Positions 28,651-46,748 of a DNA stretch of 64,000 bases are shown in pieces. Made by a program: the position numbers and the translations under genes. This DNA comes from a virus (Duplodnaviria; Heunggongvirae; Uroviricota; Caudoviricetes), in IMG/VR virus record IMGVR_UViG_3300045007_000064, positions 60,236 to 124,235 of that record; one strand, written 5' to 3'. Position 1 is the first letter of the stretch. The number at the start of each line of letters is the position of its first letter. The notes beneath the pieces were generated by a model. That model saw nothing but the letters and a program-made list of their open reading frames with translations. It was not told the origin of the DNA and searched no databases.

Positions 28651-28734
28651 TGTCAAGTGTTAAAGCTGAACATGTTGTTGCGCATGGGGTTCGTTCAAAG
28701 AGATAACCCATACACTTCGGCTCGGCTTCGTGAT

Positions 28735-30902: not shown

Positions 30903-30992
30903 TAGAGGATCGTGAACATGTTGTGAAGATCGGTGTTTGAGCTAGGTTCCGGACCAGCGCACGAGTCGAACGTGCTTTCGCCTGTGTTTGAG

Positions 30993-31025
30993 ACAGATAA
31001 CCGATACCTCTTCGGCTCACGAAGT
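30993..31025 (-). repeat. copy B of the leader motif
   Basis: Plus strand reads GATAACCGATACCTCTTCGGCTCACGAAG; the reverse complement is GAGCCGAAGAGGUAUCGGUUAUC. Confidence 0.5.
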
Positions 31026-33196: not shown

Positions 33197-33273
33197 TGGT
33201 GGAGACGAGCGGAATCAAACCCCTCACACTCTGCTTGCAAAACAAAGTCGCCATTCTTGGTACATGCGCCCCC
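33197..33273 (-). pseudogene. degenerate tRNA-Ala(TGC)-like element, CCA encoded
   Basis: Acceptor, T-arm (TTTGATT loop) and CCA are intact. The anticodon region CTTTGTTTTGCAAGCAG cannot form a proper stem, and the D-arm is aberrant. Confidence 0.35.
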
Positions 33274-33291
33274 GTAGGATGTTCAGTTATA

Positions 33292-33368
33292 TGGTGCCCA
33301 CACCTAGAGTTGAACTAGGACTTACGAGTTATCAGCTCGTCGTGCAGAGACCGCTACACCATGCGGGC
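33292..33368 (-). tRNA. tRNA-Ile (anticodon GAT), CCA encoded
   Basis: Perfect cloverleaf with anticodon loop CTGATAA and T-loop TTCAACT. Confidence 0.75.
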
Positions 33369-33579
33369 AGACAACATACAGGGCGAACATGGGGTGCCAA
33401 CGGAGATTCCATTCTTTCATGGTGTCATACGGGCCTTTCCCCGTCAGGTCATTCACTCTGACCCGAAGGCCATTCACCGGAGTGACACGTCCCAGATTAC
33501 CCTCTGGGAGGTTACTGCAAAGTTACGTGGACCTACGTCCACGGTTTGTGGTGGTTACATTACCTATTAGTGTGATAAC

Positions 33580-33647
33580 CGTATAGCTTCGGCTCGCCCT
33601 GTTGAGTTGTTGGTATCTATCGTAGCACACTTTCTCGGAGTGTGCAA
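33580..33647 (-). promoter_or_regulatory. promoter E plus leader, driving the first tRNA array
   Basis: Minus-strand TTGCAC at 33642-33647, a 17-nt spacer, TACGAT at 33619-33624, then the leader GAGCCGAAGCUAUACGGUUAUCAC. Confidence 0.5.
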
Positions 33648-33653
33648 CTTTTC

Positions 33654-33992
33654 TTACTCGTCTGCTCCGTAGGCTGCGTCACGTGCGCGGCGCAGGAGCT
33701 TGATGAGCTTGTTGATCTGGTAGCGAGACAGGCTGTCCGTGTAGATCGCCCGCTTCGTCACCTGTGGATCATCCTTCAGCGATTCCGCGTTTGCGATCCA
33801 CTGCTCGCGCGGGAACTCGATGCTGAGTTGGACGTGACCCATGTCACGACTCCAGTTTAGCTCAACACCGGGGGCGTAGTCAATGTGACCGCCCTCTGGA
33901 ACTTCACCAGGTTCACCGACTCCGGCGTTGACCTGGTGGCCTTCCTTGTTGTAGATGTCCCACGATGAGGGGACGACAGTTTCCTTGGGCAC
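33654..33992 (-). CDS. hypothetical protein
   Basis: ORF. Confidence 0.45.
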   Translation of the reverse strand: MPKETVVPSSWDIYNKEGHQVNAGVGEPGEVPEGGHIDYAPGVELNWSRDMGHVQLSIEFPREQWIANAESLKDDPQVTKRAIYTDSLSRYQINKLIKLLRRARDAAYGADE

Positions 33993-34052
33993 GGTGGCCT
34001 CCTAGTCTCTACCGCATCACGCGGTCTACCCAGCCTCACGCCGGGGAGGAGA

Positions 34053-34454
34053 CTATTCTACCACGGAAAATGCGAGAGCGGCTTCACCAAGAATCTGCTT
34101 TGACAGGTTCTCGGCCTCGATCTTGTTGCCCAGGGCCACGAGGAAGCTCGGTAGCCAGGGCTGATTGCCGGTCGCGTCGTTCTCGTGGGTGAGAATAATC
34201 ACGTTGTTCAGGTTGGTGCGCTGCACCCAGACTGCCGGGTCCACATGGATTTCTTCGCGGTCCTCGTCCAGCACCATCATGTCCAGCTCTTCGCGGCGGA
34301 TGGGGGTGACGCTACTGGGTTCGTCGGTCTCCCGATTCGCCTGCTTGTTCTCCCAGCGCCACAGGTACGCGCCGACAGGCTTGATGGATCGGTTCTCGAA
34401 CCGGTCCCAGTAGGCCATCACCTTGCGGGGGTCGTTGAAAATCAGTACAGCCAT
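34053..34454 (-). CDS. hypothetical protein
   Basis: Start at MAVLIF, overlapping the upstream stop. Confidence 0.45.
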   Translation of the reverse strand: MAVLIFNDPRKVMAYWDRFENRSIKPVGAYLWRWENKQANRETDEPSSVTPIRREELDMMVLDEDREEIHVDPAVWVQRTNLNNVIILTHENDATGNQPWLPSFLVALGNKIEAENLSKQILGEAALAFSVVE

Positions 34455-34828
34455 TACTTGTCCTTTGTCTTCCAGCGGTCTTCGAAATCCTTGCCGTGTT
34501 CCTCTTCCCACGCAGCCCAGTCTTCGAGGGACTTCGGCTCCATGTAGGCAAGCCACAGCTCTATCTCGCCCATTTCGTAGGCGGTCCTGACCTGGAGGTA
34601 GGATTCGTATGCCTGTGTGGCCTTGCCTAGATCGAGGCCGAGCTTGAACGCGTCGGACTCGAAATCGTCGTCCTCCACCCAGGAGACGTACACCTCTTCA
34701 TCGGTGTAGTCATCGCCTTCCTGGAACACTCTGCGGGCGTACTCGCAGGCCTGTTCGACTGACTCGGGGTCGAGACCCTGGTCAGTGGCGTAGCTGCGGA
34801 AGCTATCCAGTCGGTTGTCGTTTGTCAT
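34454..34828 (-). CDS. acidic hypothetical protein
   Basis: ORF. Confidence 0.5.
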   Translation of the reverse strand: MTNDNRLDSFRSYATDQGLDPESVEQACEYARRVFQEGDDYTDEEVYVSWVEDDDFESDAFKLGLDLGKATQAYESYLQVRTAYEMGEIELWLAYMEPKSLEDWAAWEEEHGKDFEDRWKTKDK

Positions 34829-34829
34829 G

Positions 34830-34907
34830 CGCCCCAGGCAGGATTCGAACCCGCATTTTCATCCAGTTACGATTCTCGGAGGTAGAAGCTCCGGTCGGTA
34901 CTGAGGC
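34830..34907 (-). pseudogene. tRNA-like element with an Arg(TCT)-like anticodon hairpin and aberrant architecture
   Basis: Intact 7-bp acceptor stem, T-arm GCGGG-TTCGAAT-CCTGC and hairpin CGGAG-CTTCTAC-CTCCG, but no D-arm and a 22-nt insert before the T-arm. Confidence 0.3.
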
Positions 34908-34914
34908 ATGTCGG

Positions 34915-35223
34915 TCAGTTGCCGATATCGTCCTTCTTCAGGCGATCAACGATTTCGGAAACCATCTTTTCAATTCTCGCGTCTTCCTGTTCTTCCTGTT
35001 CTGCCTGACGCACTTCAACTCGTGCGGCCTGCCAAGCGGCCCAGTGACCGGAGACGAGCGCCCAAACGGAGAGCGCTGATACATATACTACACTAGAGAC
35101 CCATCCGAACGCAAGAGAGGGGATGATCATAACCACCCAGAAGACCGTTGCCCACCCGTTGAATCGGCGCATGAAGACCGGATCACCGATCTTTTCCATC
35201 ATCCAGTCGTAGGTCTTGCGCAT
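34915..35223 (-). CDS. membrane protein (two transmembrane segments)
   Basis: Hydrophobic N-terminal half. Confidence 0.5.
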   Translation of the reverse strand: MRKTYDWMMEKIGDPVFMRRFNGWATVFWVVMIIPSLAFGWVSSVVYVSALSVWALVSGHWAAWQAARVEVRQAEQEEQEDARIEKMVSEIVDRLKKDDIGN

Positions 35224-35235
35224 GAGGTGTTCCTT

Positions 35236-35330
35236 GTTTGGGAGGCGGCGATATGCGGGGGCGAAATAAGAAGTGGCCTACCTCTGCCACTCCCCGCACA
35301 TTCTTCTGTGGGGTACGCGCCGCCTCCCAT
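35236..35330 (-). promoter_or_regulatory. large structured element in the 5' UTR of the membrane-protein gene
   Basis: 11-bp inverted repeat GGGAGGCGGCG / CGCCGCCTCCC enclosing about 75 nt that contain an inner GCGGGGG / CCCCGC stem. Confidence 0.4.
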
Positions 35331-35354
35331 TTGGGAGACGGCTAAGGTCTGAAG

Positions 35355-35535
35355 CTATGCCGTCTGGTCATACGCTCCTCGAATCCGTGCGTACGCATCG
35401 ACATCGAGGATAAACGAAATCCACTGATTGCTGGCCCAGCCGTGTGACCGCGCAAGGGTCTGTGCCTCCGAGAGGCTTCTGGCGTAAATCGAGTAGATCA
35501 TCTCCATCAGTTTAGCACTGATTCTGATGTTCATA
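35355..35535 (-). CDS. small hypothetical protein (59 aa)
   Basis: Under 60 aa. Moderate GC3 bias; begins 4 nt after the tRNA-Cys gene. Confidence 0.3.
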
Positions 35536-35538
35536 AAG

Positions 35539-35616
35539 TGGAGACCCTGGTCGGAATCGAACCGACAAATTCATTCGCTTTGCAGGCGAAGCGCTTGACC
35601 ACTCACGCACAGGGCC
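35539..35616 (-). tRNA. tRNA-Cys (anticodon GCA), CCA encoded
   Basis: Anticodon arm TTCGC-CTGCAAA-GCGAA and T-arm GTCGG-TTCGATT-CCGAC. Confidence 0.7.
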
Positions 35617-35617
35617 G

Positions 35618-35693
35618 TGGTAGGGTGTGTGGGACTCGAACCCACGCTCGTCAGATTATGAGTCTGGTGCCTTTACCAGCTTGGCTAACACCC
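35618..35693 (-). tRNA. tRNA-Met or tRNA-Ile2 (anticodon CAT), CCA encoded
   Basis: Anticodon loop CTCATAA and T-arm GTGGG-TTCGAGT-CCCAC. Confidence 0.6.
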
Positions 35694-35694
35694 C

Positions 35695-35769
35695 GTCGCT
35701 CGGGTGGGGCACGATCCCACCTACACTCCTTATGAGGGAGGGCCGGAACCATCTCCGGTCTACCGAGCG
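35695..35769 (-). tRNA. tRNA with anticodon CAT and a non-canonical T-loop (ATCGTGC)
   Basis: Acceptor CGCTCGG / CCGAGCG, anticodon loop CTCATAA, A in place of T54. Confidence 0.4.
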
Positions 35770-35809
35770 TCTGCCCCGAAGGGCTATTCAGTTGTTCTAG
35801 TTTAGCACA

Positions 35810-36526
35810 TCACCACCAGGACTGCCCAGCCTTGCGGCGCGGGGTGATGTTCTCACGGTCGAAGGAATCCTCCCAGAACTCCTCTCCCGAGTTGAACTGC
35901 TTGGCGACTTCCTTCAGCGTGTCGCGGGCGATTGCACGCTTAGCGGCGTTGTATCCCTGAGGGGAGCAGCAGGAGCAGCGGTACTTGTAGACGTTGCGGT
36001 CTGCGCCGTACCAGTCTGCTTCCATGTAGCAGGGGTTGGCGTTGCTCCAACGGCTCACCATGAGCGGCTTCTCATCGATGGTGCAGTGATCGGGCACGGT
36101 GTACGCGAGGTAGCGCTCCTGCTTCGGGCGGCGGTAGGTGCCACCCTCCACGAGGGCGCTGTCCGGGTAACCGTGAGCGCGGAGCCACATGGCCTCGGAG
36201 CGGACCTTCGCGTAGTCGCGGGAGCGTGCCACGGAGTAGTCGCGGTTCCAACGCCAGTAGCGAATCTCCTCACCGGATTCCGAGCGCTTGGGGATCGAGA
36301 GTCCCTTGTCGGTGACCCAGGCCCACGAGTACATGGTTTCCGGCTTGGCGAGGAGGTCTCCCACGGTGTGGAAGTACGGAACCTCTTCGAGAACGGTCTT
36401 GCCGTCCTCATCCTTTACATCACGGGTGTACCAGACCTCTTCGCCCAGGCGAGAGTGGTCGTGGTGCTCCACACCGTGATCGTTGACCTTCACCCAGTAG
36501 GGTCGGGTCTTGTCAGTGCGAGACAT
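35810..36526 (-). CDS. hypothetical protein
   Basis: Long ORF rich in Trp, Tyr, Arg and His. Confidence 0.55.
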   Translation of the reverse strand: MSRTDKTRPYWVKVNDHGVEHHDHSRLGEEVWYTRDVKDEDGKTVLEEVPYFHTVGDLLAKPETMYSWAWVTDKGLSIPKRSESGEEIRYWRWNRDYSVARSRDYAKVRSEAMWLRAHGYPDSALVEGGTYRRPKQERYLAYTVPDHCTIDEKPLMVSRWSNANPCYMEADWYGADRNVYKYRCSCCSPQGYNAAKRAIARDTLKEVAKQFNSGEEFWEDSFDRENITPRRKAGQSWW

Positions 36527-36737
36527 TGTGTTCCTATCCGGAACACAGGTGCTAGGCCTTTCCTAGCTCTGGTCCTGTGTTCCTAACACCTGAACAGCGT
36601 TGGGCTGCTCATAGTGACTAGGAACGCGGTGTTGTCGAATTCGTTGCTCATGGGTCCAGTGTAGCACACCTTCCGGGATAACGCAAACGGAGCTTGATCC
36701 TATTCGGGTTAGGATCAAGCTCCGTTGATCTTACAGG

Positions 36738-37964
36738 TCAGCCCTTGACGCAGAGGATCGTCTGAAGGTGCGCGACCTTCTCGACCAGGTTGCTCTGAGC
36801 CTCGACCACCGCGTGTAGGTCCTTGTAGGCGTGAGAGATTTCGTCAATCACACCCGCGTCCTTGCGCGACTCGATGCCCTTCATGGTCTCAGCCACGTCC
36901 GCCACCGTGAAGCGGCGCTTGGCCTCACCACGGCTCATCTTCCGACCGGCACCGTGAGATGCGGAGGTCAGAGACGCCTCGTTACCGAGACCACGGACGA
37001 TGTACGAGCCGGTTGCCATCGATCCGGGGATCAACGCCAGCTCGCCCTTCTTCGCGGAGATTGCGCCCTTACGGGTCACGATCATGTCCACCGGCTTGCC
37101 ATCCACGAGGTGAGTCTCCTCCGCCACGTAGTTGTGGTGGCAGTTGATTTCGTCCTCGAAGCGCACCTTGGAGATGACGCGAGCCAGCTCACGCTTCACG
37201 AGGGACATCATCACCGTACGGCTGGTCGCCGCGTAGTTCTGCGCCCACATGAGGTCGTGCCGGTACTCCAGCATCTCCGGGGTGTCCTTCAGGAAGACCG
37301 CCAGCTCCTTGATCGGAAGGTCCTGGTTGTGATCCAGGGTCTTCGCGATGGAGATGTGGCGCTCTGCCAGCTCCTTGCCGATGTTCCGCGAACCGGAATG
37401 CAGCGTGATCCAGATGTTGTCATCCTCGTCCGTGCACAGTTCGATGAAGTGGTTACCTCCACCGAGGGTACCGAGCTGCTTACCGGCACGCTCCTCCAAC
37501 TTGTCCGCACCCGGGGCGCGGAGAGAGTCGAAGCCGTTCTTCAGCTTGGTGACCTCGGAGTTCAGGCCGTTACCGCCGATGTCTCGGAGGTCCTTCGAGG
37601 ACAGCGCCTCACCGTGGGAGTTGAAGCCGACCGGCACCGCGCGCTCGATGGCGCTACGGAGCTTGTGGAGGATGCCGTCAACGTCCTCACGAGTGAGGTT
37701 CGTCTTCACGGCGTTCACACCACAGCCGATGTCCACACCCACAGCGGACGGACAGATCGCGCTCGTGGAGCCGATCACCGTACCGATGGTCGCGCCAGCG
37801 CCCAGGTGAACGTCGGGCATCACGCGCAGCTCGTCAACCCACGGCAGCGCGCCGACGTTGCGAATCTGCTGAACCGCCTGCGGTTCGATTTCCCACTCGT
37901 TCGCCCACATGAGTGTGCGAGTCTTTGCACCCGGCAATTCAACCGGGAAGTTGTTGTCAGTCAT
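36738..37964 (-). CDS. rtcB: RtcB-family RNA 3'-phosphate ligase
   Basis: VMPDVHLGAGATIG, part of the metal-binding histidine signature, in a 408-aa protein. Confidence 0.9.
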   Translation of the reverse strand: MTDNNFPVELPGAKTRTLMWANEWEIEPQAVQQIRNVGALPWVDELRVMPDVHLGAGATIGTVIGSTSAICPSAVGVDIGCGVNAVKTNLTREDVDGILHKLRSAIERAVPVGFNSHGEALSSKDLRDIGGNGLNSEVTKLKNGFDSLRAPGADKLEERAGKQLGTLGGGNHFIELCTDEDDNIWITLHSGSRNIGKELAERHISIAKTLDHNQDLPIKELAVFLKDTPEMLEYRHDLMWAQNYAATSRTVMMSLVKRELARVISKVRFEDEINCHHNYVAEETHLVDGKPVDMIVTRKGAISAKKGELALIPGSMATGSYIVRGLGNEASLTSASHGAGRKMSRGEAKRRFTVADVAETMKGIESRKDAGVIDEISHAYKDLHAVVEAQSNLVEKVAHLQTILCVKG

Positions 37965-38254
37965 TTCGTGTCCTCGTAGTGGAAGAAGATTTCGGTGTCG
38001 GGTCGAAGGTAAATCTTGTACCCGTTTTGGTTGATCAGAATCGTCCCGTTCTGGTGAACGTAGATCGACTCAATGGTGTAGACATGCGGCTTGGTGATCC
38101 AGGCCTTAGCGGTATCATCCCAGTGTCGGGAAGGCTTAGCCTTCCCCCGGCGACTACCGTAGACGATGGACTCTACCGTACGCCCTAGGTCGCTGATCCG
38201 TAGTTCGGATGCTGGAACTGGAATCTTCGAGACGGTCATGCGTTGTACGTCCAC
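37961..38254 (-). CDS. hypothetical protein
   Basis: ATGA coupling to the rtcB start. Confidence 0.45.
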   Translation of the reverse strand: MDVQRMTVSKIPVPASELRISDLGRTVESIVYGSRRGKAKPSRHWDDTAKAWITKPHVYTIESIYVHQNGTILINQNGYKIYLRPDTEIFFHYEDTK

Positions 38255-38697
38255 AGCTCGATGTCTGCTCGATACCGCAGGGCAACTTCGGTGAGGACGA
38301 CCTCGACCATACGTTGGTCCAGACCGCCGATACCGCTGCCGATCCGAGGCAGGGCCAGAGTCTCGATGCCCACCTCATCACACTTCTGGAGGGCCGCAGC
38401 CACACCGCCGATGAGCAGGTCGTAGGAGGCGTTCGCCCCGGGAAGCTCCTGCGAGGCGATGTTCAGAACGAGCGCAGGCTGTCCCCACGGGGTCTTCAGG
38501 CTCCAGGAGAACACGCCTCCCGGCTCCAGGGTGCGGTTGCTGCACGCCTCCCGGTAGGCCTCGAACATCTCAGGGAACCGCTTGCTGAACTGCGCAGCGA
38601 TCCCCGCGCCCATAACGCCCACGGTGTTGACGCCGTGGCCGATGGCTCGCGAAGTCGTGGTGAAGATGTCGCCGTAGCGGTGGATAAGCTTTGTCAT
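38236..38697 (-). CDS. macro-domain protein (ADP-ribose or ADP-ribose-1''-phosphate processing)
   Basis: GDIF...GVNTVGVMGAGIAAQF and LPRIGSGIGG are macro-domain signatures. Confidence 0.7.
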   Translation of the reverse strand: MTKLIHRYGDIFTTTSRAIGHGVNTVGVMGAGIAAQFSKRFPEMFEAYREACSNRTLEPGGVFSWSLKTPWGQPALVLNIASQELPGANASYDLLIGGVAAALQKCDEVGIETLALPRIGSGIGGLDQRMVEVVLTEVALRYRADIELWTYNA

Positions 38698-38736
38698 GGT
38701 CTCAGCCTAACAGGTGTCGCCTGCTGTGTCAAGGCG

Positions 38737-39012
38737 TCAGTACGCCGTGTTGTCCTCGTGACCGCAGGAACCCTTGTGATTGACGGGCTTCTTGCATGGT
38801 TTCCATGTCCAGTCACTCGCATCCCATGCGTCCACGTCCCGGTAGGCCTGACCGCACTCATAGCTGTCGCTGTGGGTGTGGTAGAACCCGGCTCGACTGT
38901 TCGGGAGCTTGCCCAGCTCGGGTCCCGTCAGCTTCTTGATTCCTTGCTGCACTTCCGATAGCTCGTGGAGTAGTCTCTCCTCTTCGCGCTGAAGATCGCT
39001 GAGGGCGCTCAT
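38737..39012 (-). CDS. hypothetical cysteine/histidine-containing protein
   Basis: Start taken at MSALSDL. Confidence 0.4.
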   Translation of the reverse strand: MSALSDLQREEERLLHELSEVQQGIKKLTGPELGKLPNSRAGFYHTHSDSYECGQAYRDVDAWDASDWTWKPCKKPVNHKGSCGHEDNTAY

Positions 39013-39386
39013 TCGCTGTCTCCCTTGCTCAGGTGGTCGTAGATGACGCTGATCTTGACCCACTCGGGGGCCTCGGCGTTCGCGGCGGCGAGCATCTGCT
39101 TGCGCGCGGGAGGGTTGGACGTGTGGATGGTCAGCTCCTCAGGCCAGACCTCGTGCTCGATCATCCAGTTCAGCACCTTCATGCCGGTGTCGTCACCGCC
39201 GAGGTCGTGATCCAGGCTGACCTCCTCGATCCCGCCACCAAGAGGGCGTCCACGCTTGTCGTTGTTTCGACGCCACGTCTCCAGCCAGTCGATGGCCTCA
39301 GCGCTTGTCCGCGCGTGAACGTGCCATGGAATGCTATTGGAGTCCCACGGCATGGGACGCTCGTCGTCTACCCAAATCTTCATCAC
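39009..39386 (-). CDS. hypothetical protein, WVDDERP paralogue 1
   Basis: N-terminus MMKIWVDDERPMP...VSLDHDLG. Confidence 0.5.
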   Translation of the reverse strand: MMKIWVDDERPMPWDSNSIPWHVHARTSAEAIDWLETWRRNNDKRGRPLGGGIEEVSLDHDLGGDDTGMKVLNWMIEHEVWPEELTIHTSNPPARKQMLAAANAEAPEWVKISVIYDHLSKGDSE

Positions 39387-39694
39387 TTACCGTCCTGGTT
39401 GTCGTCGTCTACGAGGATCAGACCCTCCGGCCCTGCTTCCTTGGCGTAGGAGAGAATCTGGTAGCGACCGGTGCCACCGCCCGAGTGGGAGTGAAGTTCA
39501 CGAGGCCAGATGCCACGGCTTTCCATCCACTGGAGAACGTCGAAGCCGGAGTCCCAGCCGATCAGCACGTAGTCCAGCGAGACCACATCGTAGTCATTCT
39601 CCTGGAGCAGGCTGCGCGCATCGTCGGCGGTCTTGGCTACGTCCCAGTTCTCGTCCGGAGCGGGGCGCTCATCGTCTACCCAGAGTTTCTTCAT
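39383..39694 (-). CDS. hypothetical protein, WVDDERP paralogue 2
   Basis: N-terminus MKKLWVDDERPAP...VVSLDYVL; tandem duplicate of the neighbouring gene. Confidence 0.5.
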   Translation of the reverse strand: MKKLWVDDERPAPDENWDVAKTADDARSLLQENDYDVVSLDYVLIGWDSGFDVLQWMESRGIWPRELHSHSGGGTGRYQILSYAKEAGPEGLILVDDDNQDGK

Positions 39695-39744
39695 ACTGCC
39701 AGGGTACACGAGAAAGGCCCCGCTGTCAAGCGAGGCCTTTCCGG

Positions 39745-40818: not shown

Positions 40819-40872
40819 GAGTCCAGCGTATACGAAAAAAGCCTCGCTGTCAACGCCAGCGAGGCTATGTTC

Positions 40873-40946
40873 TTGGTGGGTCCTGCGGGGATCGAACCCG
40901 CGCTTGAAGGGTAAAAGCCAACAGTGCTCCCGCTACACCAAAGACC
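40873..40946 (-). tRNA. tRNA (anticodon not resolved), CCA encoded
   Basis: Good acceptor stem and T-arm GCGGG-TTCGATC-CCCGC; the anticodon stem is ambiguous. Confidence 0.45.
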
Positions 40947-40947
40947 C

Positions 40948-41019
40948 GCACTCCCACCTGAAATCGAATCAGGACTTCGAGGACCAAAATCTCGCGTGGC
41001 TACCGTTACACTATGGGAG
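40948..41019 (-). tRNA. tRNA-Gln (anticodon TTG)
   Basis: A1-U72 pair, T-arm CCTGA-TTCGATT-TCAGG, anticodon loop TTTTGGT. Confidence 0.5.
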
Positions 41020-41079
41020 TATGTGGAAGCTTTAAGGACTCGAACGTGCGCACGTTTGTCCCACGGTTTTCCAACCTCC

Positions 41080-41150
41080 GCTCCCCAGCCTGGATTCGAA
41101 CCAAGACGAGCAGATTCAGAGTCTGCCATGCTACCGTTACATCACCGGGG
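41080..41150 (-). tRNA. tRNA-Gln (anticodon CTG)
   Basis: U1-A72 pair, anticodon arm GCAGA-CTCTGAA-TCTGC, T-arm CTTGG-TTCGAAT-CCAGG. Confidence 0.7.
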
Positions 41151-41266
41151 AATACGCCTGCCGCATCTACACATACGCTTTGAGGCCGTGACCCAGGCCA
41201 GCAGGACTTCTGTGGAGGTCTCGACTTCGATTTCGCCCCGAAGGATACGCATATCGACTCCACATT

Positions 41267-41337
41267 GCTCCCCAGCCTGGTTACGATCCAAGTCTTCGAT
41301 GTTCAGAGCATCGCGTGCTGCCAGTACACTACCGGGG
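41267..41337 (-). tRNA. tRNA-Gln(CTG)-like paralogue with T-loop ATCGTAA
   Basis: Same acceptor as the preceding gene, anticodon arm CGATG-CTCTGAA-CATCG, A in place of T54. Confidence 0.4.
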
Positions 41338-41346
41338 AATAGATGG

Positions 41347-41466
41347 GCTACATGCCCACCAAGATTGCTGCTACGAGAATGATCAGTCCAAGACCGATGG
41401 TGGCGAGGGTGATCTTCACGTCTGAGGGCGACTTGAACTGGCCCTCTTCTTCTGCGTCGAATGTCA
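41347..41466 (-). CDS. small membrane protein (39 aa)
   Basis: Under 60 aa. AGGA ribosome-binding site, strong GC3 bias, one predicted transmembrane helix; lies between tRNA genes. Confidence 0.35.
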
Positions 41467-41483
41467 TGCTGACATCCTACCAC

Positions 41484-41558
41484 ATGGTGTCCCCGGAGGG
41501 GATCGAACCCTCGACCAAGGTCTTAGGAGGACCTGATTCTGCCACTGAACTACGGAGA
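41484..41558 (-). tRNA. tRNA-Arg (anticodon CCT), CCA encoded
   Basis: Anticodon arm AGGTC-CTCCTAA-GACCT and T-arm CGAGG-GTTCGATC-CCCTC. Confidence 0.75.
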
Positions 41559-41774
41559 CATATGCTGACCTGTAAGCCGGGTTCTGTCGTTGAAGACGCA
41601 CATCTACCTTCGCCACATACCCGCTCATCATCGGGGAATGACACCCTAGAACTGTTTGTGTTGCACCCACGGCCTCACCGCTGCTTCATTAGTCTGTGCT
41701 TAGTGGACGTACCACACGGCTATCATTCGGGTGCCCGGACTTTCCTCAGCTTGCGCCGCGTGCGTCCAGTCAGC

Positions 41775-41847
41775 GTGCCAACACCGGGATTCGAACCCGG
41801 AACCTTCAGCCTCGGAAGCTGCTGCTCTATCCATTGAGCTATGTCGG
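41775..41847 (-). tRNA. tRNA-Arg (anticodon CCG)
   Basis: Anticodon loop TTCCGAG and T-arm CCGGG-TTCGAAT-CCCGG. Confidence 0.6.
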
Positions 41848-41848
41848 C

Positions 41849-41923
41849 GTGGTCTCCCCGGCAAGAATCGAACTTGCATCGCCTGGTTCGTAGCCAGACA
41901 TCGTATCCATTGGAACACGAGGA
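41849..41923 (-). tRNA. tRNA-Arg (anticodon ACG), CCA encoded
   Basis: Anticodon arm TCTGG-CTACGAA-CCAGG. Confidence 0.7.
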
Positions 41924-41973
41924 GTTACCTGCGACTTAAACAGAGCACCGACTTTACGATGTTGCGCCGCATT

Positions 41974-42046
41974 GTACCCCAAGAGGGATTCGAACCCCCG
42001 ACCTCTGCATCCGTAGTGCAGCGCTCTATCCACTGAGCTATTGAGG
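41974..42046 (-). tRNA. tRNA-Arg (anticodon ACG), second copy
   Basis: Anticodon arm CTGCA-CTACGGA-TGCAG and T-arm GGGGG-TTCGAAT-CCCTC. Confidence 0.55.
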
Positions 42047-42047
42047 C

Positions 42048-42120
42048 GCATGGGTGGCAGGATTTGAACCCGCGACACGTCGGGTTGGAGCCGACTGCTC
42101 TGGCCTCTGAGCTACACCCA
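42048..42120 (-). tRNA. tRNA-Trp (anticodon CCA)
   Basis: A1-U72 and G73, anticodon arm GTCGG-CTCCAAC-CCGAC, T-loop TTCAAAT. Confidence 0.7.
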
Positions 42121-42564
42121 TATAGTGGTCGAAGAGCGTCTGAGATATTCAAGCGCTCTGAGAAGACCTGTTTCGTTGTCGCCTAGCATTCCGATCCCAG
42201 TGTTGCAGGGAGCGCAGAGTAGGCCTCGTACACACTTACCGCACGAGTGAGGCCCCGGGCAGCAACTGTGGTCATGGTCCACAACCTTAGCAGGTCTTGC
42301 CTGGCAAGACCAGCACATCCCGTTGAACATGGCAAGGAGTTCCTGCCATCGTTCGACCGAGATACCATGACGAGTATGTGAAGGACCATTCTTCTTGTGA
42401 ATGGCTTGCGCCTTGTCAATGTACTTCTGACGGTTGGCTTGGTAGTGCGACTTTCGATAGGCGCGGTGGCAATCCTTGCACTGGGCAGCGCGTCTGACGT
42501 TCTTCACTCGCCAGCTATAGTTCTCTTCTGGCTGAGTCACGCCACACTTGGTACACTTCTTCAT
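42112..42564 (-). CDS. HNH endonuclease
   Basis: VVDHDHS...CGKCVRGLLCAPCN. AT-rich. A TATAAT box lies 7 nt upstream of the ATG. Its 3' end overlaps the tRNA-Trp gene by a few nt. Confidence 0.7.
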   Translation of the reverse strand: MKKCTKCGVTQPEENYSWRVKNVRRAAQCKDCHRAYRKSHYQANRQKYIDKAQAIHKKNGPSHTRHGISVERWQELLAMFNGMCWSCQARPAKVVDHDHSCCPGPHSCGKCVRGLLCAPCNTGIGMLGDNETGLLRALEYLRRSSTTIWV

Positions 42565-42737
42565 ACTCACATTATAGCACTCCAAAATATTTCGTTTGGA
42601 GACCGCACCCCACCGACGAATCGAACGCCGCACGCAGAGGGTTGGAATCTCTACTGGTACCCAGACCGTGGGATATATGACGACCAACGCACTACAGTCC
42701 AGTTCGCGACCATTGCCGTAGGTGAATTGATCATCCG

Positions 42738-42809
42738 CTCCCCCGCCTGGATTCGAACCAGGGACCTTAGAGTTAACAGCTCTCTGCTCTGCCGCTGAGC
42801 TACAGGGGA
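42738..42809 (-). tRNA. tRNA-Asn (anticodon GTT)
   Basis: Anticodon loop CTGTTAA and T-arm CCTGG-TTCGAAT-CCAGG. Confidence 0.65.
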
Positions 42810-42877
42810 ATACGCTACACATTCGCTAATCAACATGCTTTCGCACCGTTAGCCTAAAAGGACAGTAGCCTTCCTCG

Positions 42878-42950
42878 CTCCCCCGCCTGGTGACGATCCA
42901 AGCTCACGCGGTTAACAGCCGCGGGTTTTACCAACATAAACTACAGGGGA
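42878..42950 (-). tRNA. tRNA-Asn(GTT)-like paralogue with T-loop ATCGTCA
   Basis: Anticodon arm CGCGG-CTGTTAA-CCGCG, A in place of T54. Confidence 0.4.
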
Positions 42951-43021
42951 ATATGGGGACCGTTCCTTTTACGGATTCGTTGGTTACCCCAGCACGGTCC
43001 TACACCGGGGGTTGTTACGTC

Positions 43022-43501
43022 TTAGAGCCAGTCTGCCTCTGGGTGGCTCCACCTGTAGGCTTCCTCGAAAGTCGGCTTGTAAGGCTGGAATGCCAGGGTC
43101 ATGCCGCTCTGTTCAAGCGACTTGTCACCCTTCTTGTTGTTGCAGGGCTGGCAAGCGGCAATCGAGTTCTCCCACGATGCGGGGTTACCCTTGGACTTGG
43201 GCTTGATGTGGTCCACCGTGGTAGCCTTGCCGCCACAGTAGGCACAGACGAAGCCGTCTCGCCTCAGGACGCCACGCTTAGAGAACGGGATGACGCCTGT
43301 GCGGTTGTACTTCCACTTGGCGAAGACGTACCGGACCAGCTCGACAGCCGTAGGCCGCTCGTAGGGGCCGAACATCTCACCAGCAATGCTCTTCAGAATA
43401 CGAGCCTTGCCCTGGTGGACCATCTTGATTGCGTGGGTCAGACTGACGCGGTTCAGCGCTTCCTTACCACCTAGGTTGTAAACGATAACTGTTGCGCTCA
43501 T
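43022..43501 (-). CDS. HNH endonuclease
   Basis: CAYCGG...TVDHIKP...CQPCNNKKG. Start taken at MSATVIV. Confidence 0.7.
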   Translation of the reverse strand: MSATVIVYNLGGKEALNRVSLTHAIKMVHQGKARILKSIAGEMFGPYERPTAVELVRYVFAKWKYNRTGVIPFSKRGVLRRDGFVCAYCGGKATTVDHIKPKSKGNPASWENSIAACQPCNNKKGDKSLEQSGMTLAFQPYKPTFEEAYRWSHPEADWL

Positions 43502-43574
43502 GAGTCTGACCTCCAATCACATTCTATCACAGCGTCATGAGTTTTAGGGGGCAGTAGGTTGCCAGCCCGTCAAT

Positions 43575-43871
43575 TTAGACGATCAGAGCCATTGCCTTAG
43601 CGAATGCCTCGGGGTCGTAACCTCCGGCGTAAGCGCCTGCCCAGAGAGAAGTTGCCTCCTCACGAGCCTGCTCTGCCGTCAGAGGACCGGTTAGGTCATC
43701 ATCCGAGTGGGATTCCCAAGGGCTGTAGCAGGAGCACCCGCTGTCCGTAGACAACCAGTATCCGTCCTCAGTCTTCCAGATTCCCACAAGGTCGTAGGAG
43801 TAGTAAGGCTCAGCCAAATCTACTTCCACGATCATTTCGAACTTGTCACTGATCTTGCTTCCGTACATCAT
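43575..43871 (-). CDS. hypothetical protein
   Basis: ORF. Confidence 0.45.
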   Translation of the reverse strand: MMYGSKISDKFEMIVEVDLAEPYYSYDLVGIWKTEDGYWLSTDSGCSCYSPWESHSDDDLTGPLTAEQAREEATSLWAGAYAGGYDPEAFAKAMALIV

Positions 43872-44042
43872 GATTCTCCATTCGTTGTTATAGCGAAACC
43901 ATTCTTGGAGAACCTATGCACTTGTAGCGTAGACCGCCAGGGAATCGAACCCTGCACAACTTCCGTGTAAAGGATGTCTGCGTACCCAGCGCGCAGTCCG
44001 TATGAGTAGTACTCTAGCAGACACTCGGATGAATGTCAACTG

Positions 44043-44114
44043 TGTTCGCGAGAGGAATTGAACCTCCGACATCCGACGAGTCAGGTCGGCACTCTACCAC
44101 TGAGTTACGCGAAC
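44043..44114 (-). tRNA. tRNA-Val (anticodon GAC), tentative
   Basis: Perfect acceptor stem GTTCGCG / CGCGAAC and anticodon arm CCGAC-CTGACTC-GTCGG; position 37 is unusual. Confidence 0.45.
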
Positions 44115-44259
44115 GTGCGGGAACCTAAGAGTTAGCGACCTCTGACCATGACTCCCGAATACGTCAGCGGCTCTTGTGTTTTGGGCGACTGGTTACGGCC
44201 CGCAGGGTTTCTCGTGTGTTCCCATTTGTATACCGCCTCCAAACCCTTGTCGGCGGGAG

Positions 44260-44333
44260 TGCCGCGTCTGGGAATCGAACCCAGGACCTCTCCCGTACCA
44301 GGGGAGTGTTCTAAACCACTGAACTAACGCGGC
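44260..44333 (-). tRNA. tRNA-Thr (anticodon GGT)
   Basis: Anticodon arm CTCCC-CTGGTAC-GGGAG and T-arm CCTGG-GTTCGATT-CCCAG. Confidence 0.75.
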
Positions 44334-44420
44334 ATGGCATGAGACGGGCACCAACTCTCGCCCTTACTGAGGCTCACACACCCCAACGGATTTTGCTGTG
44401 CACAGCAGGCATTCCTACCT

Positions 44421-44494
44421 TGGTGCCGGAACTCAGAATCGAACTGAGGGCTGCTCGTTACGAAGGAGCTGCTTTACCACTAAGCGATACCGGC
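44421..44494 (-). tRNA. tRNA-Thr (anticodon CGT), CCA encoded
   Basis: Anticodon loop TTCGTAA; U6·U67 mismatch in the acceptor stem. Confidence 0.6.
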
Positions 44495-44575
44495 ATGCAG
44501 GGTTTTTCACTGACAGCCTCTACTGTCACTCGGATATTACCGAGACGCATTCCTAGGAAATGTCCCTTACGTTTG

Positions 44576-44648
44576 TGCCGGAGTTGGGAATCGAACCCAC
44601 GTTAATCCGCTTTACAAGAGCGGTGCAAAACCACTATGCATCACCGGC
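44576..44648 (-). tRNA. tRNA-Thr (anticodon TGT)
   Basis: Anticodon arm CCGCT-CTTGTAA-AGCGG; the same U6·U67 mismatch. Confidence 0.65.
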
Positions 44649-44656
44649 AAGAGTGC

Positions 44657-44766
44657 TGGAGGACTTGAACCTCTCGGACGCCGCATGGACCCTAGGCCTG
44701 TTTTACATGCGTTAGTGCGTGCCTGTTATTTTCTTCAGCCCGAATCATTACGGGTCTACAGCACCG
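44657..44766 (-). pseudogene. unresolved tRNA-like element of about 110 nt
   Basis: 7-bp acceptor stem (GGTGCTG / CAGCACT) and T-arm (TTCAAGT loop) with about 45 extra nt between the D region and the T-arm. Confidence 0.25.
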
Positions 44767-44840
44767 TGCGGAGAACGGGGATCGAACCCGCGACCTTCTC
44801 GTTGGCAACGAGACGCTCTGCCAGATTGAGCTACCTCCAC
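44767..44840 (-). tRNA. tRNA-Gly (anticodon GCC)
   Basis: Anticodon arm TCTCG-TTGCCAA-CGAGA and T-arm GCGGG-TTCGATC-CCCGT. Confidence 0.7.
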
Positions 44841-44962
44841 TTAGGTGCATGGGCATTACCCCCATGCTGGCCGACACCCCTGTAACGAAACTCAGTCGGA
44901 GAGACCCGGCACTGCGTTTTAGCCTCGTCAAGTGCGTTCGAGGGAGCCGTATGCATCCGGCT

Positions 44963-45036
44963 TGGAGCGACTAGCGGGAATCGAACCCGCGCGTACACCA
45001 TGGCAAGGTGTCAAGCTACCATTACATCATAGTCGC
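44963..45036 (-). tRNA. tRNA-Gly (anticodon GCC), second copy, CCA encoded
   Basis: Anticodon arm ACACC-TTGCCAT-GGTGT and T-arm CGCGG-GTTCGATT-CCCGC. Confidence 0.5.
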
Positions 45037-45142
45037 GTATGGACACGGCGTCCCCAGAGCGACTGCCCGAGGACAACAATAACGACTTCGCTATTCGCAT
45101 TCACATATCGTTACCGCTAAGCACCCGTATCCGGTTGCTCCG

Positions 45143-45213
45143 AGTGAGTGACGGGGATCGAACCCGCGACAACAGGGTGGAAGCCTGTCATGTTACCGCT
45201 ACACCACACTCAC
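45143..45213 (-). tRNA. tRNA-Gly (anticodon TCC)
   Basis: Anticodon arm ACAGG-CTTCCAC-CCTGT. Confidence 0.7.
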
Positions 45214-45362
45214 GTATCTGTACCATTCTAGCACAGAAGTGTTTAGGGCGCAACCATCGAAAGTTGCATCTGCCACGCGGGAAGTCATGACTTTCCCGGT
45301 TCCGCCTCGGGTAGTACTCCCCGATTTGGACAAGGCCGTGTTTCCATTGACACCAGCCCCCG

Positions 45363-45436
45363 TACCCCCACTCGGACTCGAACCGAGGACCCACCGCTTA
45401 AGAGGCGGTTGCTCTAACCAACTGAGCTATAGAGGC
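45363..45436 (-). tRNA. tRNA-Lys (anticodon CTT)
   Basis: Anticodon arm ACCGC-CTCTTAA-GCGGT and T-arm CTCGG-TTCGAGT-CCGAG. Confidence 0.7.
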
Positions 45437-45507
45437 AAATTGAGAAGGGACGTTTGTGCCACTCGTCCTGCCGTGATCATTCGGCCATGCCCTTCTCGGA
45501 CGCGACG

Positions 45508-45581
45508 TGGGTCCCACGGGATTCGAACCCGTATTCCGCTGGGTAAGAGCCAGGAGTAATAAGCCGTTATACCAGAGACCC
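45508..45581 (-). tRNA. tRNA-Lys (anticodon CTT), second copy, tentative
   Basis: Anticodon loop CTCTTAC and T-arm ACGGG-TTCGAAT-CCCGT. Confidence 0.45.
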
Positions 45582-45689
45582 AAATGCGAGGCGGCAAGAT
45601 TTGTGACCTTTGCGCTTCTCTCCGGTACGGTCATGCGGAGACCTCGTGCTATTACAGTACTACAAGTCGGGGCTATTGTCAACCCCTCG

Positions 45690-45775
45690 CGGCGAGCAGA
45701 GAAATCGAATCCCACAGCCTTGCGACTGCCGACTCCTTAGCAGGGAGCGCCCAGAACCATCGGGGATTACTCGCC
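45690..45775 (-). tRNA. tRNA-Ser (anticodon GCT), class II
   Basis: Anticodon arm GCTCC-CTGCTAA-GGAGT, long variable arm, T-loop TTCGATT. Confidence 0.55.
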
Positions 45776-46127
45776 AAAGATACCACCTAAGTAAAGGTAC
45801 GAGCAACCCTCCTGTGTCTCATGGACGTGTACCCCTGTCCCCGTAAGCCTACTTAGCAACATACAGGACTCGATACACCAAGGTTGCAACCCAAGCCGCA
45901 CAAAGACGACGTGTGGTAACGCGGAGAGCAGAGTAGTCGAAACCCATACCTTGCGGTACCAGCGGTGTTCAAAGCCGCGCCGTCATTCCCTGCCGGTTTA
46001 CTCTCCATGGCGGTGAGCAGAGTATTCGAAACCCATGCCCGGAGGCACCATCAGTTTTCGAGGCTGAGTCACGGAACCCCCGTGATTTACTCACCATGTG
46101 CCGGGATCAAGGCTCCCGGCGAGCCTA

Positions 46128-46302
46128 CTAGACGCGAGTGTCCGTCTTCTTGCCTGTGATGTAGCGCCACAGCCACGAGATAAGGGCAACGAGTGCCAGG
46201 GCCAGGGCGATCCAGAGCATCCACTTCACGGCCTCGACCAGAAGGCCGAATCCAAAGAAGATGATTGCAAGGACAATAAGCACGATCAATAGTGCGTTCA
46301 TG
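46128..46302 (-). CDS. small membrane protein (58 aa, two transmembrane segments)
   Basis: Under 60 aa. AGGAG ribosome-binding site 11 nt upstream; hydrophobic. Confidence 0.45.
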
Positions 46303-46323
46303 AGTTGTGTTACTCCTAGTTAA

Positions 46324-46641
46324 TTACCAATTGCGATCCGGGAACAGGTAAACCAAGTCAGCAGGGGTGATTGAGTAAATCTCAATTCCTCGCTTCCGGA
46401 ATTCCTTGATCAATTTCGCACCAGAATGGTCGTCCGACCACTCCAGGTCTCCATGATCCCCCGGGAACAGATAATCCTCCGGGTGAAGATCGTACACGAC
46501 CTCGTTGAACTTGTCAACCGTCAGGTCCCACGGGGCGTCAACAACCACCCAATGTCTCCACTTCTTTCGAAGGTCCTTCTTTGTCAAAGTACCTACGATT
46601 TCACCCACGAAGAAATTCTGCATGGGTACATCGTAGCACAA
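46324..46641 (-). CDS. hypothetical protein
   Basis: ORF with lower GC than its surroundings. Confidence 0.45.
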   Translation of the reverse strand: MCYDVPMQNFFVGEIVGTLTKKDLRKKWRHWVVVDAPWDLTVDKFNEVVYDLHPEDYLFPGDHGDLEWSDDHSGAKLIKEFRKRGIEIYSITPADLVYLFPDRNW

Positions 46642-46644
46642 AAC

Positions 46645-46744
46645 TGCACGGCCCGCTCACAGGATTCGAACCTGATTTCGGCGGGTGGGCTTATTTACCA
46701 TCGTCCCAAGTTCATCCATTCGGTAACCAACCGTTGGGCCGTGC
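46645..46744 (-). pseudogene. tRNA-like element with a 9-bp extended acceptor stem
   Basis: GCACGGCCC / GGGCCGTGC stem, D-arm-like CGG-TTGGTTA-CCG, T-arm (TTCGAAT loop), and no recognisable anticodon arm. Confidence 0.3.
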
Positions 46745-46748
46745 ATTG

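Follow-up and report, generated by a model that had tools for sequence, protein, structure and literature searches.

Several kinds of RNA that depart from the tRNA cloverleaf, or that borrow parts of it, have been described. Metazoan mitochondrial (mt) tRNAs such as mt-tRNA-Ser(AGY/UCU) lose the D arm together with the elbow contacts (review PMC7609411). Circularly permuted and split tRNA genes, found in Cyanidioschyzon merolae and in archaea, have a non-canonical order of segments, but their mature tRNA is canonical again after processing (PMC3728597). In YrlA RNAs of bacteria and phages there are tRNA-like domains whose modules follow the order T arm, acceptor-like hairpin, D arm, and bacterial Y RNAs are characterized by a 5' GNCGAAN0-1G motif and by a same-strand position next to Ro60 (Chen et al. 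2014). Here, we compare such systems with four tRNA-like elements, E1 to E4, in a stretch of 64,000 nucleotides (nt) of viral DNA (the window; positions 60,236 to 124,235 of IMG/VR record IMGVR_UViG_3300045007_000064). The source is a Microbacterium phage of ~190 kb, whose nearest GenBank relatives are six Microbacterium phages (Big4, Zooman, A3Wally, Cece, Pumpernickel and one further relative, hereafter the sixth relative). The original prediction had offered pseudogenes, intron-containing tRNAs or YrlA-like modules as explanations of the four elements. From comparison with homologous sequences, we consider it likely that they are instead working members of a phage tRNA gene family, not relics, and that they are of three kinds, namely E2, E1, and E3 together with E4. 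The elements are the following:

33197..33273, minus strand: E1, putative phage-type tRNA-Ala(UGC) variant (sequence, phage homologues, class covariation)
34830..34907, minus strand: E2, predicted tRNA-Arg(UCU) with a transposed D arm (sequence, homologues, class covariance model)
44657..44765, minus strand: E3, tRNA-like RNA (Zooman and Cece orthologues, compensatory changes)
46645..46744, minus strand: E4, tRNA-like RNA (Cece copy, metagenome copy, compensatory changes)

RESULTS AND DISCUSSION

Four tRNA-like elements inside a phage tRNA array

ARAGORN identified 43 tRNA genes in the window, all of them on the minus strand between 32968 and 53126, and Rfam agrees with this array. E1 to E4 are located inside it and on the same strand, at coordinates that the original prediction had right to within 1-2 nt. 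None of the four is called by ARAGORN among its 43 tRNAs, and the Rfam tRNA model (RF00005) scores E2 alone, at 29.6 bits against a threshold of 29, with no match for E1, E3 and E4 even at E-values up to 10. The Rfam families for tRNA-Sec and for introns also gave no match on the four elements, at gathering as well as permissive thresholds. A scan for the T-arm motif returned orphan T arms on the tRNA strand exactly at the four sites, and the few further orphan T arms from the same scan are tRNAs missed by ARAGORN. Given these orphan T arms inside the array, and the conserved homologues that each of the four has in other phages, the elements are more than chance resemblances. None of the four is a canonical cloverleaf, in which nucleotide 9 and the anticodon stem are separated by a D-arm hairpin: in E2 this interval is 7 nt long, E1 has only a 2-base-pair (bp) stem, and E3 and E4 have a D-like hairpin without an anticodon arm.

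A predicted tRNA-Arg class with a transposed D arm

For E2, a perfect acceptor stem, a T arm, an Arg(TCT) anticodon hairpin, no D arm and a 22-nt insert had been described, and this is how the element reads on the minus strand. Its 5' part consists of a perfect 7-bp acceptor stem, UAC, CGA (strand 1 of a 3-bp helix) and C. The anticodon arm follows, with the loop CUUCUAC (anticodon UCU), and then AGAA and UCG (strand 2, which pairs with CGA). The 3' part comprises UAACUGGAUGAAAAU, which is D-loop-like, a perfect T arm, the acceptor strand and the discriminator G. Thus, a connector of 7 nt alone stands where the D arm belongs, and a 22-nt segment lies between the anticodon hairpin and the T arm. 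This "insert" would be no intron but the relocated D-stem strand and D loop.

Orthologues of E2 are found in Pumpernickel (100% identity), Zooman (95%), Big4 (88%) and Cece (88%), and the copies of the window and Pumpernickel are identical despite differing flanks; A3Wally and the sixth relative have an ordinary tRNA-Arg(UCU) at the locus. The two E2 haplotypes differ by two compensatory double changes. One of these is in the anticodon stem, and in the other the connector changes from ACGA to ACGG together with a change of the post-anticodon segment from UCGU to CCGU, which suggested a D-type helix enclosing the anticodon arm. In Big4 and Cece, the A-U pair has thereby been replaced by G-C in a compensatory manner. 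A sensitive BLAST search recovered the same layout in the T4-like Pectobacterium phage POP12, where it is unannotated.

The class was defined by pairing of nucleotides 11-13 of a 7-nt connector, UAYNNNN, with the triplet ahead of UAAYUGGA, by an Arg anticodon within a 7-nt loop that has U33 and A37, and by G18-G19-A20 in the relocated D loop. In all parsed members, an acceptor stem of 7 bp is followed by the connector and by an anticodon stem of 5 bp with an anticodon for Arg (UCU, ACG, UCG, CCU or GCG in every one of them). After a linker of 4-8 nt come a triplet complementary to positions 11-13 of the connector, then UAAYUGGA, 3-4 nt and AU, and finally the T arm, which is canonical. E2 itself has the CGA/UCG pairing, a 7-nt loop CUUCUAC with U33 and A37, and the UGGA segment. 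Across 41 distinct aligned sequences, each of the three pairs of the new helix covaries through four Watson-Crick types, and pairs 11:42 and 12:41 are paired in every sequence. The whole structure of the class is 96.5% paired, compared with 61% in shuffles, none of 500 of which reached 96.5%, and sliding the helix partners lowers pairing to 47% or less. Class members show little or no variation at U8, A9, UAAYUGGA and the AU that precedes the T stem, and the A after GG is invariant although the first search pattern did not demand it. Under the class covariance model (R1), E2 scores 82.7 bits and members of the class 68.9-82.7 bits, including untrained copies (the ACG type in three Microbacterium phages and one Felix O1-like copy), whereas canonical tRNAs score at most 32 bits, with a maximum of 31 bits for those of the window and of the six relatives' loci. 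We have high confidence in the E2 structure and in the distribution of its class, and regard E2, as predicted from this covariation, as an example of a widespread tRNA-Arg fold with a transposed D arm that is found almost only in viruses.

The architecture occurs in about 130 IMG/VR contigs and in about 315 GenBank phage records. An over-specific pattern had given no matches in IMG/VR before a generalised pattern succeeded with 55 contigs; an anticodon-free pattern gave 84, and the two sets overlap. The UCU type accounts for 268 GenBank phage records, and the gene is carried by Felixounavirus, 145-kb coliphages, Klebsiella KB57-like phages, 350-kb Escherichia jumbo phages and the Proteus phage Mydo. 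The ACG type accounts for 47 records, of which 44 are Streptomyces and 3 Microbacterium phages. Each of seven Microbacterium phages keeps at least one copy of the class. In prokaryotes, one exact pattern, the same one that gave the 84 viral contigs, was scanned across 185,579 species genomes (one genome per species) and returned 2 matches, both in contigs of metagenome-assembled genomes. The copies are nearly all unannotated (one is labelled 'tRNA-OTHER', and in the Felix O1-like phage Alf5 the gene lies unannotated within a tRNA cluster), and ARAGORN missed 55 of the 55 loci tested. Literature searches, including a 2020 review of non-canonical tRNAs (PMC7609411), brought up no account of this tRNA-Arg or of the tRNA-Ala variant treated below, which is not proof that the E2 fold is undescribed.

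An unannotated tRNA-like element of the T5-like Escherichia phage DaisyDussoix (locus 374-445) and about 80 related records was observed as well. It has a 6-bp acceptor stem with one U.U, a hairpin ACGGU-AAUAUCA-ACCGU, AACUGGUGGAAGAU and a canonical T arm. It was rejected as a member of the class: 32 of 37 nt are common with the 3' half of E2, yet it scores 28 bits under R1.

Canonical tRNA-Arg, such as the tRNA-Arg(UCU) at the same locus of A3Wally and the sixth relative, has much in common with the E2 class: the 7-bp acceptor stem, the 5-bp anticodon stem, the loop CUUCUAA (CUUCUAC in E2 itself), the T arm, G18-G19-A20, a length of ~76 nt, anticodons for Arg only, and the place in phage tRNA clusters. 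The difference lies between the acceptor and anticodon stems, which in E2 are 7 nt apart, and in the D helix, which encloses the anticodon arm in place of forming its own hairpin, since its partner strand and the D loop are downstream of that arm. With the D-arm-lacking mt tRNAs, the class shares a short D-arm connector and the fact of being missed by standard finders. Unlike them, E2 keeps the D-loop sequence and a covarying D-type helix, both relocated, its T arm and acceptor stem are fully canonical, and its genes are those of bacteriophages. The non-canonical order of segments is also seen in permuted and split tRNA genes; however, the E2 gene begins and ends with the normal acceptor strands, and the transposition is confined to an internal segment, so that the mature RNA must have a new topology.

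Proposed fold and decoding by E2

In the fold that we propose, the 5' strand of the D stem and the D loop, which normally precede the anticodon arm, would have been relocated to a site directly ahead of the T arm, which is formally a shift of nucleotides 10-21 to between 47 and 48. The 3-bp helix (nucleotides 11-13 and the post-anticodon triplet) would enclose the anticodon arm and should stack on it, and the relocated loop would read U-A14-A15-Y-U-G18-G19-A20...A-U48 and still present A20. Given that U8, A9 and the U before the T stem are invariant, the contacts U8:A14, A15:U48, G18:psi55 and G19:C56 could all form. There would be three new backbone junctions (9 to 23, 47 to 10 and 21 to 48), each joining nucleotides that are neighbours in the canonical structure. 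In yeast tRNA-Phe, A9 forms a triple with A23-U12, G45 forms a triple with G10-C25, and A21 lies next to 48. We infer a normal L shape with a re-threaded core.

A20 and C35 form the classical identity set of ArgRS. On the basis of the conserved identity elements and of AGA codon usage, E2 would be charged by ArgRS and would decode AGA, a role that we assign with moderate confidence. E2 is the sole gene of the window with a UCU anticodon, and AGA makes up 68 of the 13,284 codons of the window's open reading frames (ORFs), or 7% of the arginine codons.

E1, a putative phage-type tRNA-Ala(UGC) variant

E1 had been taken for a decayed tRNA-Ala(TGC) with CCA. Its identity as Ala(UGC) and the encoded CCA hold, but decay is not supported, considering the phage class to which it belongs and its compensated elbow pair. 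Within its 77 nt, the element combines an acceptor stem of 7 bp that includes G3:U70, a 6-bp anticodon stem whose loop carries UGC, a 4-nt variable loop and the T loop UUUGAUU. There is no normal D arm; the D region, CAUGUACCAAGAAUGGCGA, forms a mini D stem of 2 bp. The annotated tRNA-Ala of Pseudomonas phage VCM is 80% identical to E1 over its full length, E1 likewise resembles genes in Vibrio phages, and its type of D-region motif is found in at least 120 IMG/VR contigs.

Among the matches listed, G3:U70 is present in 108 of 108 parsed sequences, and members of the class have the UGC anticodon, the 2-bp D stem, the 6-bp anticodon stem, a variable loop of 3-4 nt and the signature CAUGUWCYRAG..RGCGA in the D region, and E1 has every one of these features. 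The tertiary pair 19:56, among the same matches, is G:C in 108, A:U in 3 and C:G in 1, with no mismatches, and E1 itself has the Watson-Crick pair A19:U56. As U56 is offset by A19, the elbow is compensated, which argues for a function of E1. The sixth pair of the anticodon stem and the mini D stem also covary in the class. From these patterns, E1 appears to be an alanine tRNA (UGC) of a widespread phage variant, which would be charged via G3:U70 and in which the elbow pair would have switched from G19:C56 to A19:U56.

The tRNA-like domain of transfer-messenger RNA (tmRNA) shares G3:U70, a reduced D region and the T arm with E1; in contrast to tmRNA, E1 lacks an mRNA-like domain, and its anticodon arm, with UGC, is a normal one. 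Of the four elements, E1 alone gave a score with the tmRNA model, and this was a sub-threshold one (14 bits, threshold 47). A length of 77 nt leaves no room for a tag frame, and ARAGORN found no tmRNA in the window.

Two further observations concern this type of gene. In the E1-class alignment, the last base of the variable loop (column 50) tracks the second pair of the mini D stem (15:23): a C-G pair goes with G in the loop, and a U-A pair with U or A, which suggests a base triple. Also, Big4, Zooman and Cece have a third kind of tRNA-Ala(UGC), 'Ala2', of 67-68 nt (67 nt in the Big4 and Zooman copies), at 9127-9193 (Big4), 10092-10158 (Zooman) and 6310-6380 (Cece) of each phage's locus. In Ala2, nucleotides 8-9 are absent and the D hairpin reads CUUA-CGGG-UAAG, and the acceptor stem of the Zooman copy is that of E1 (GGGGGCG/CGUCUCC). 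D-arm remodelling recurs among the paralogues of these arrays.

E3 and E4, candidate tRNA mimics

E3 had been put at about 110 nt with an insert; it is 109 nt long, and about 60 nt replace the anticodon arm between a D-like hairpin (CCCG/CGGG) and the T arm, below a 7-bp acceptor stem. Within these 60 nt, the conserved GAAGAMAAUAAC is single-stranded, and the remainder is a long hairpin with irregular pairing. The gene immediately adjoins tRNA-Gly(GCC). Its orthologues are found in Zooman, at the same position, and in Cece, after a different tRNA, and compensatory changes among them affect the acceptor stem, the D stem, the T stem and the inner helix; the 12-nt GAAGAMAAUAAC is kept, and the distal hairpin is not conserved. 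No homologues were found beyond Zooman and Cece. In IMG/VR, GAAGAMAAUAAC upstream of a T loop had 12 matches, which were rejected as ordinary tRNAs with the motif by chance, and the combined pattern of D arm and motif had none. The complement of the single strand, as an antisense target, does not occur within the window.

Two RNA-repair genes are interleaved with the array:

36738-37964: RtcB
39745-40818: RNA ligase

RtcB is the tRNA splicing ligase of archaea and metazoans. With this gene encoded nearby, and with intact D and T arms that are about 60 nt apart where an anticodon arm would take up 17 nt, E3 could be imagined as a tRNA with an intron or an expanded anticodon arm, removed with the phage RtcB as splicing ligase, or tolerated. 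We find this highly improbable. Neither a 7-nt anticodon loop nor a bulge-helix-bulge is conserved among the three orthologues, the distal part is wholly different between the window and Zooman/Cece, the conserved segment is a single strand and not an exon-like anticodon stem, and Rfam detects no group I signature. The intron explanation that had been offered for the elements is unsupported for E4 as well, in which, as in E3, no candidate anticodon loop was found.

The 9-bp stem, the D-like and T arms and the lack of an anticodon arm that had been noticed in E4 are all present. From the 5' end, it comprises the 9-bp closing stem, a 4-bp D-like hairpin CGGU-UGGUU-ACCG, AAUGGAUGAA, a hairpin in which GGG/CCC closes a loop of 15 nt, and a T arm of 4 bp. 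E4 is located 3 nt after tRNA-Ser(GGA) and directly ahead of a coding sequence with its own extended -10 element; it is the end of the tRNA-Ser unit, directly before the promoter-like element TGnTACGAT. In the Cece copy, the 9-bp closing stem carries two compensatory changes. A further copy, in a metagenome contig, is identical to E4 at 99 of 100 nt and lies next to a strongly diverged tRNA-Ser(GGA). No copies beyond these two were found with an E4 model (R2), and the exact 5' motif of E4 had no matches in IMG/VR. The 9-bp stem and the 4-bp T stem add up to a 13-bp acceptor domain like that of 9/4 tRNA-Sec, within the group of tRNA-Sec and allo-tRNAs (9/4, 8/4, 9/3). E4 differs from tRNA-Sec in that it has no anticodon arm, has five unpaired nt between the T and closing stems, and is found in three related phages only.

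Three other interpretations of E4 were dropped: an alternative helix CCCGC/GCGGG around the T arm is weakened in Cece, a short ORF (AUG...UGA) loses its start codon in Cece, and as a rearranged tRNA-Arg the element is matched by R1 in the T loop alone, at 13.4 bits. The hairpin and AAUGGAUGAA of E4 do resemble the helix and D-loop segment of E2, but the UGGAUGAA segment that the two have in common is only a hint of a possible shared origin.

Without an anticodon, E3 and E4 cannot decode. From the compensatory changes, we conclude that they are probably selected tRNA mimics. With low confidence, we suggest that they may serve as substrates or decoys of tRNA-binding enzymes, or as punctuation for RNase P/Z processing where tRNA transcription units end.

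Working genes or relics

Several observations weigh against reading the four elements as working genes. The z-scores of single-sequence folding were -0.4 (E1), -1.4 (E2), -0.3 (E3) and -2.6 (E4), and those of E1 to E3 are unremarkable and uninformative. The T stem of E1 carries one G.G mismatch, and its T loop is non-consensus. A canonical tRNA-Arg(UCU) adjoins the E2-type gene in at least four contigs, and in some Microbacterium phages the rearranged Arg(ACG) stands beside canonical Arg(ACG) genes. E3 is known from three sequences, and E4 from three sequences in two haplotypes; both are missing in most relatives, and thus dispensable, and their distal parts are poorly conserved.

The flaws of E1 and the patchy occurrence of E3 and E4 could be those of tRNA pseudogenes in decay, which duplication and shuffling have left behind in an array that evolves fast; pseudogenes were one of the explanations of the original prediction. 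It would agree with this that ARAGORN misses all four, that Rfam scores E2 alone and just above the threshold, that E3 and E4 have no anticodon, and that the array has homing endonuclease genes and an order rearranged between phages. However, E1 and E2 match large and deep covarying classes across unrelated phages, the copy of E2 in Pumpernickel has stayed identical where the flanks have not, and the T-loop change of E1 is compensated in the D loop. In E3 and E4, the substitutions are compensatory and not random, keeping the helices in the 2-3 phages concerned, and E4 is far better conserved than the adjoining tRNA. We therefore consider decay improbable, and retain the reading of E1 to E4 as likely working members of the tRNA gene family.

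Ro60 and Y-RNA-like genes

The window also encodes Ro60 and genes for Y-RNA-like transcripts:

26878..28656, minus strand: Ro60 orthologue (TROVE and Ro60 vWA domains in Pfam; 'Ro-like RNA binding protein' in all six relatives)
30908..31022, minus strand: Y-RNA-like gene YC, YrlA-like (motif and fold)
about 33380..33600, minus strand: Y-RNA-like gene YD (5' GAGCCGAAG...GGUUAUC and 3' CCCCAUGUUCGCCC; just upstream of tRNA-Ile and within the range, 33197-46744, of the original prediction)
about 28660-28726, 31028-31118 and 31145-31220, minus strand: remaining Y-RNA-like genes (GAGCCGAAG...GGUUAUC)

The five Y-RNA-like genes have GAGCCGAAG, 5-8 nt and GGUUAUC, as well as a 3' CAUGUUC, which pairs back. 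YC has GAGCCGAAG in its closing stem, a V hairpin, a perfect T arm (GCACG UUCGACU CGUGC), a covarying acceptor-like hairpin and no D arm. At least three of the genes are preceded by a promoter-like TTGCAC-N17-TAnnnT(AGAT). Such gene sets are present in at least five of the six relatives, a strict motif search being empty in Pumpernickel. Two of the RNAs match the model of nematode sbRNA, a Y RNA homologue, at 30.1 and 25.4 bits, under the threshold, and none in the window matches Rfam YrlA (RF02553). A sixth GAGCCGAAG was observed at about 28602, in the Ro60 leader.

With Ro60 on the same strand and RtcB and RNA ligase in the same genome, and with tRNA-like domains being a part of known YrlA RNAs, E1 to E4 might themselves be YrlA-like Y RNA modules that bind the phage Ro60, and in E4 there is a near match, ACCGAAUGG, that is one base off the GNCGAAN0-1G motif. 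The chance of this being so seems to us very slight. The motif is absent from E1 to E3, and the near match of E4 is lost in Cece, which has ACCGAUGG. RF02553 has no match on any of the four at E-values up to 10, and its sole match in the window (15.6 bits, E = 9) overlaps a tRNA-Gly. The order of arms in the four elements is that of a tRNA, unlike YrlA, and the role of Y RNAs would already be filled by the five separate genes with GAGCCGAAG...GGUUAUC. Hence, the YrlA idea of the original prediction is a good fit for the locus, with its Ro60, five Y-RNA-like genes and one that is YrlA-like, and not for the elements for which it was made, which share with YrlA the presence of tRNA-like modules in a genome with Ro60 and RtcB.

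RNase P RNA and other genes of the array

The following genes were also identified in the array:

41557..41777, minus strand: RNase P RNA-like gene, 221 nt, catalytic domain only (Rfam RNaseP_bact_a; between tRNA-Arg(CCG) and tRNA-Arg(CCU))
46011-46095, 45922-46006 and 45690-45775, minus strand: type II tRNA-Ser with the anticodons CGA, UGA and GCU, respectively (missed by ARAGORN and Rfam)
42606-42674, minus strand: tRNA-Trp(CCA)-like gene (missed by ARAGORN and Rfam)

The match of the RNase P RNA-like gene to the Rfam bacterial type A model runs from end to end and scores 71.7 bits against a threshold of 100 (E = 3e-20). It retains CR-I (GAGGAAAGUCCGGGC), CR-V (ACAGAACCCGGCUUA), P1-P4 and P15, and its specificity domain is cut from about 110 nt to 23 nt. 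Identity is 99.5% in A3Wally and about 91% in Zooman, Big4 and the sixth relative, and the gene is not in Cece or Pumpernickel. Among five phages, compensatory changes are seen in P3, a P5-like helix and P15/16, and correlated changes in P4. A search of IMG/VR for a small RNase P RNA, using a pattern of CR-I...CR-V with short spacing, had no matches, and no phage RNase P RNA was found described in the literature. The specificity domain of RNase P normally reads the tRNA elbow. A ribozyme that misses its elbow-reading domain, inside an array rich in elbow and D-arm variants, is worth a study of its own.

In the three tRNA-Ser genes, the first pair of the T stem is U.U, and 31:39 is C.A. tRNA-Ser genes with the same three anticodons are annotated in relatives, of which only the tRNA-Ser(GCU) of Big4 was matched directly, to the copy at 45690-45775. 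In the tRNA-Trp-like gene, a loop of only 3 nt closes the 4-bp D stem, 31:39 is A.C, and a stretch of 58 nt is 100% identical in the sixth relative, where it is unannotated. At 50080-50153 (minus strand), ARAGORN calls a tRNA-His with an unusual anticodon, AUG, at loop position 37, which has 36 bits in Rfam and may be a non-canonical tRNA or a misfolded call. A megablast search with window positions 33000-47000 returned 119 records of Synechococcus phages, and 122 of the 168 matching records had 95-99% identity, presumably across a short stretch of about the size of a tRNA. In the GenBank record of A3Wally, many tRNA products are apparently named from the anticodon read as a codon, for instance 'tRNA-Ser(tct)' for the Arg(UCU) gene and 'tRNA-Pro(cct)' for Arg(CCU), which looks like an annotation error in the public record.

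Further genes interleaved with the array encode a macro-domain protein and a cyclic-phosphate receiver-domain protein, and a peptidyl-tRNA hydrolase is annotated in the arrays of relatives.

Possible roles and implications

Since canonical isoacceptors sit beside rearranged genes, the E2 fold is not required merely to supply an anticodon and may do more. One option is anti-defence, in which the altered D-arm connectivity of the E2 class, and perhaps the missing anticodon of E3 and E4, would escape or absorb host tRNA nucleases or modifying toxins. The fold is essentially restricted to viruses and co-occurs with canonical isoacceptors, its retention in all seven Microbacterium phages fits as well, and several paralogues alter the D arm specifically (E1, E2 and the Ala2 of Big4, Zooman and Cece). 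In addition, the array is set among RNA-repair genes (RtcB, the RNA ligase, Ro60, the macro-domain and cyclic-phosphate receiver proteins, and the peptidyl-tRNA hydrolase of relatives). On the other hand, the anticodon loop, the usual target of such nucleases, is canonical in E2, a host nuclease acting on the D arms of tRNA-Arg is hypothetical, and the conserved A20, discriminator and T arm fit ordinary translation equally well. We rate anti-defence as rather unlikely, and note that the two roles are compatible.

Tentatively, and as a suggestion that could well be wrong, we propose that the tRNA-Arg with the transposed D arm is a previously unrecognised and nearly virus-only alternative fold that would keep the L shape and the ArgRS identity. 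It may have been maintained in hundreds of phages, such as the Felix O1-like phages and the 145-kb coliphages, by escaping or manipulating a host factor that reads the D arm, be it a nuclease, a modification enzyme or quality control. In this group of Microbacterium phages, it may be part of a larger kit with the elbow-variant tRNAs, the mimics E3 and E4, Ro60 and the Y RNAs, RtcB, and the RNase P RNA without a specificity domain.

The E2 class would be a natural and abundant tRNA with all canonical stems and tertiary partners but another threading of the chain. This would have a bearing on how tRNAs fold and on how far ArgRS, EF-Tu, RNase P and the ribosome tolerate a change of topology. As genes of the class are missed by ARAGORN and unannotated in hundreds of curated genomes, the tRNA repertoires of phages are under-counted. 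Arguments on phage codon usage are affected by such incomplete lists, which often have no decoder of AGA or CGN. The occurrence of the class in phages of E. coli and Salmonella (Felix O1-like and others) makes it experimentally tractable. With two mimics that have no anticodon, with Y RNAs and with a small RNase P RNA, this phage group would offer a compact system for the study of viral manipulation of tRNA metabolism.

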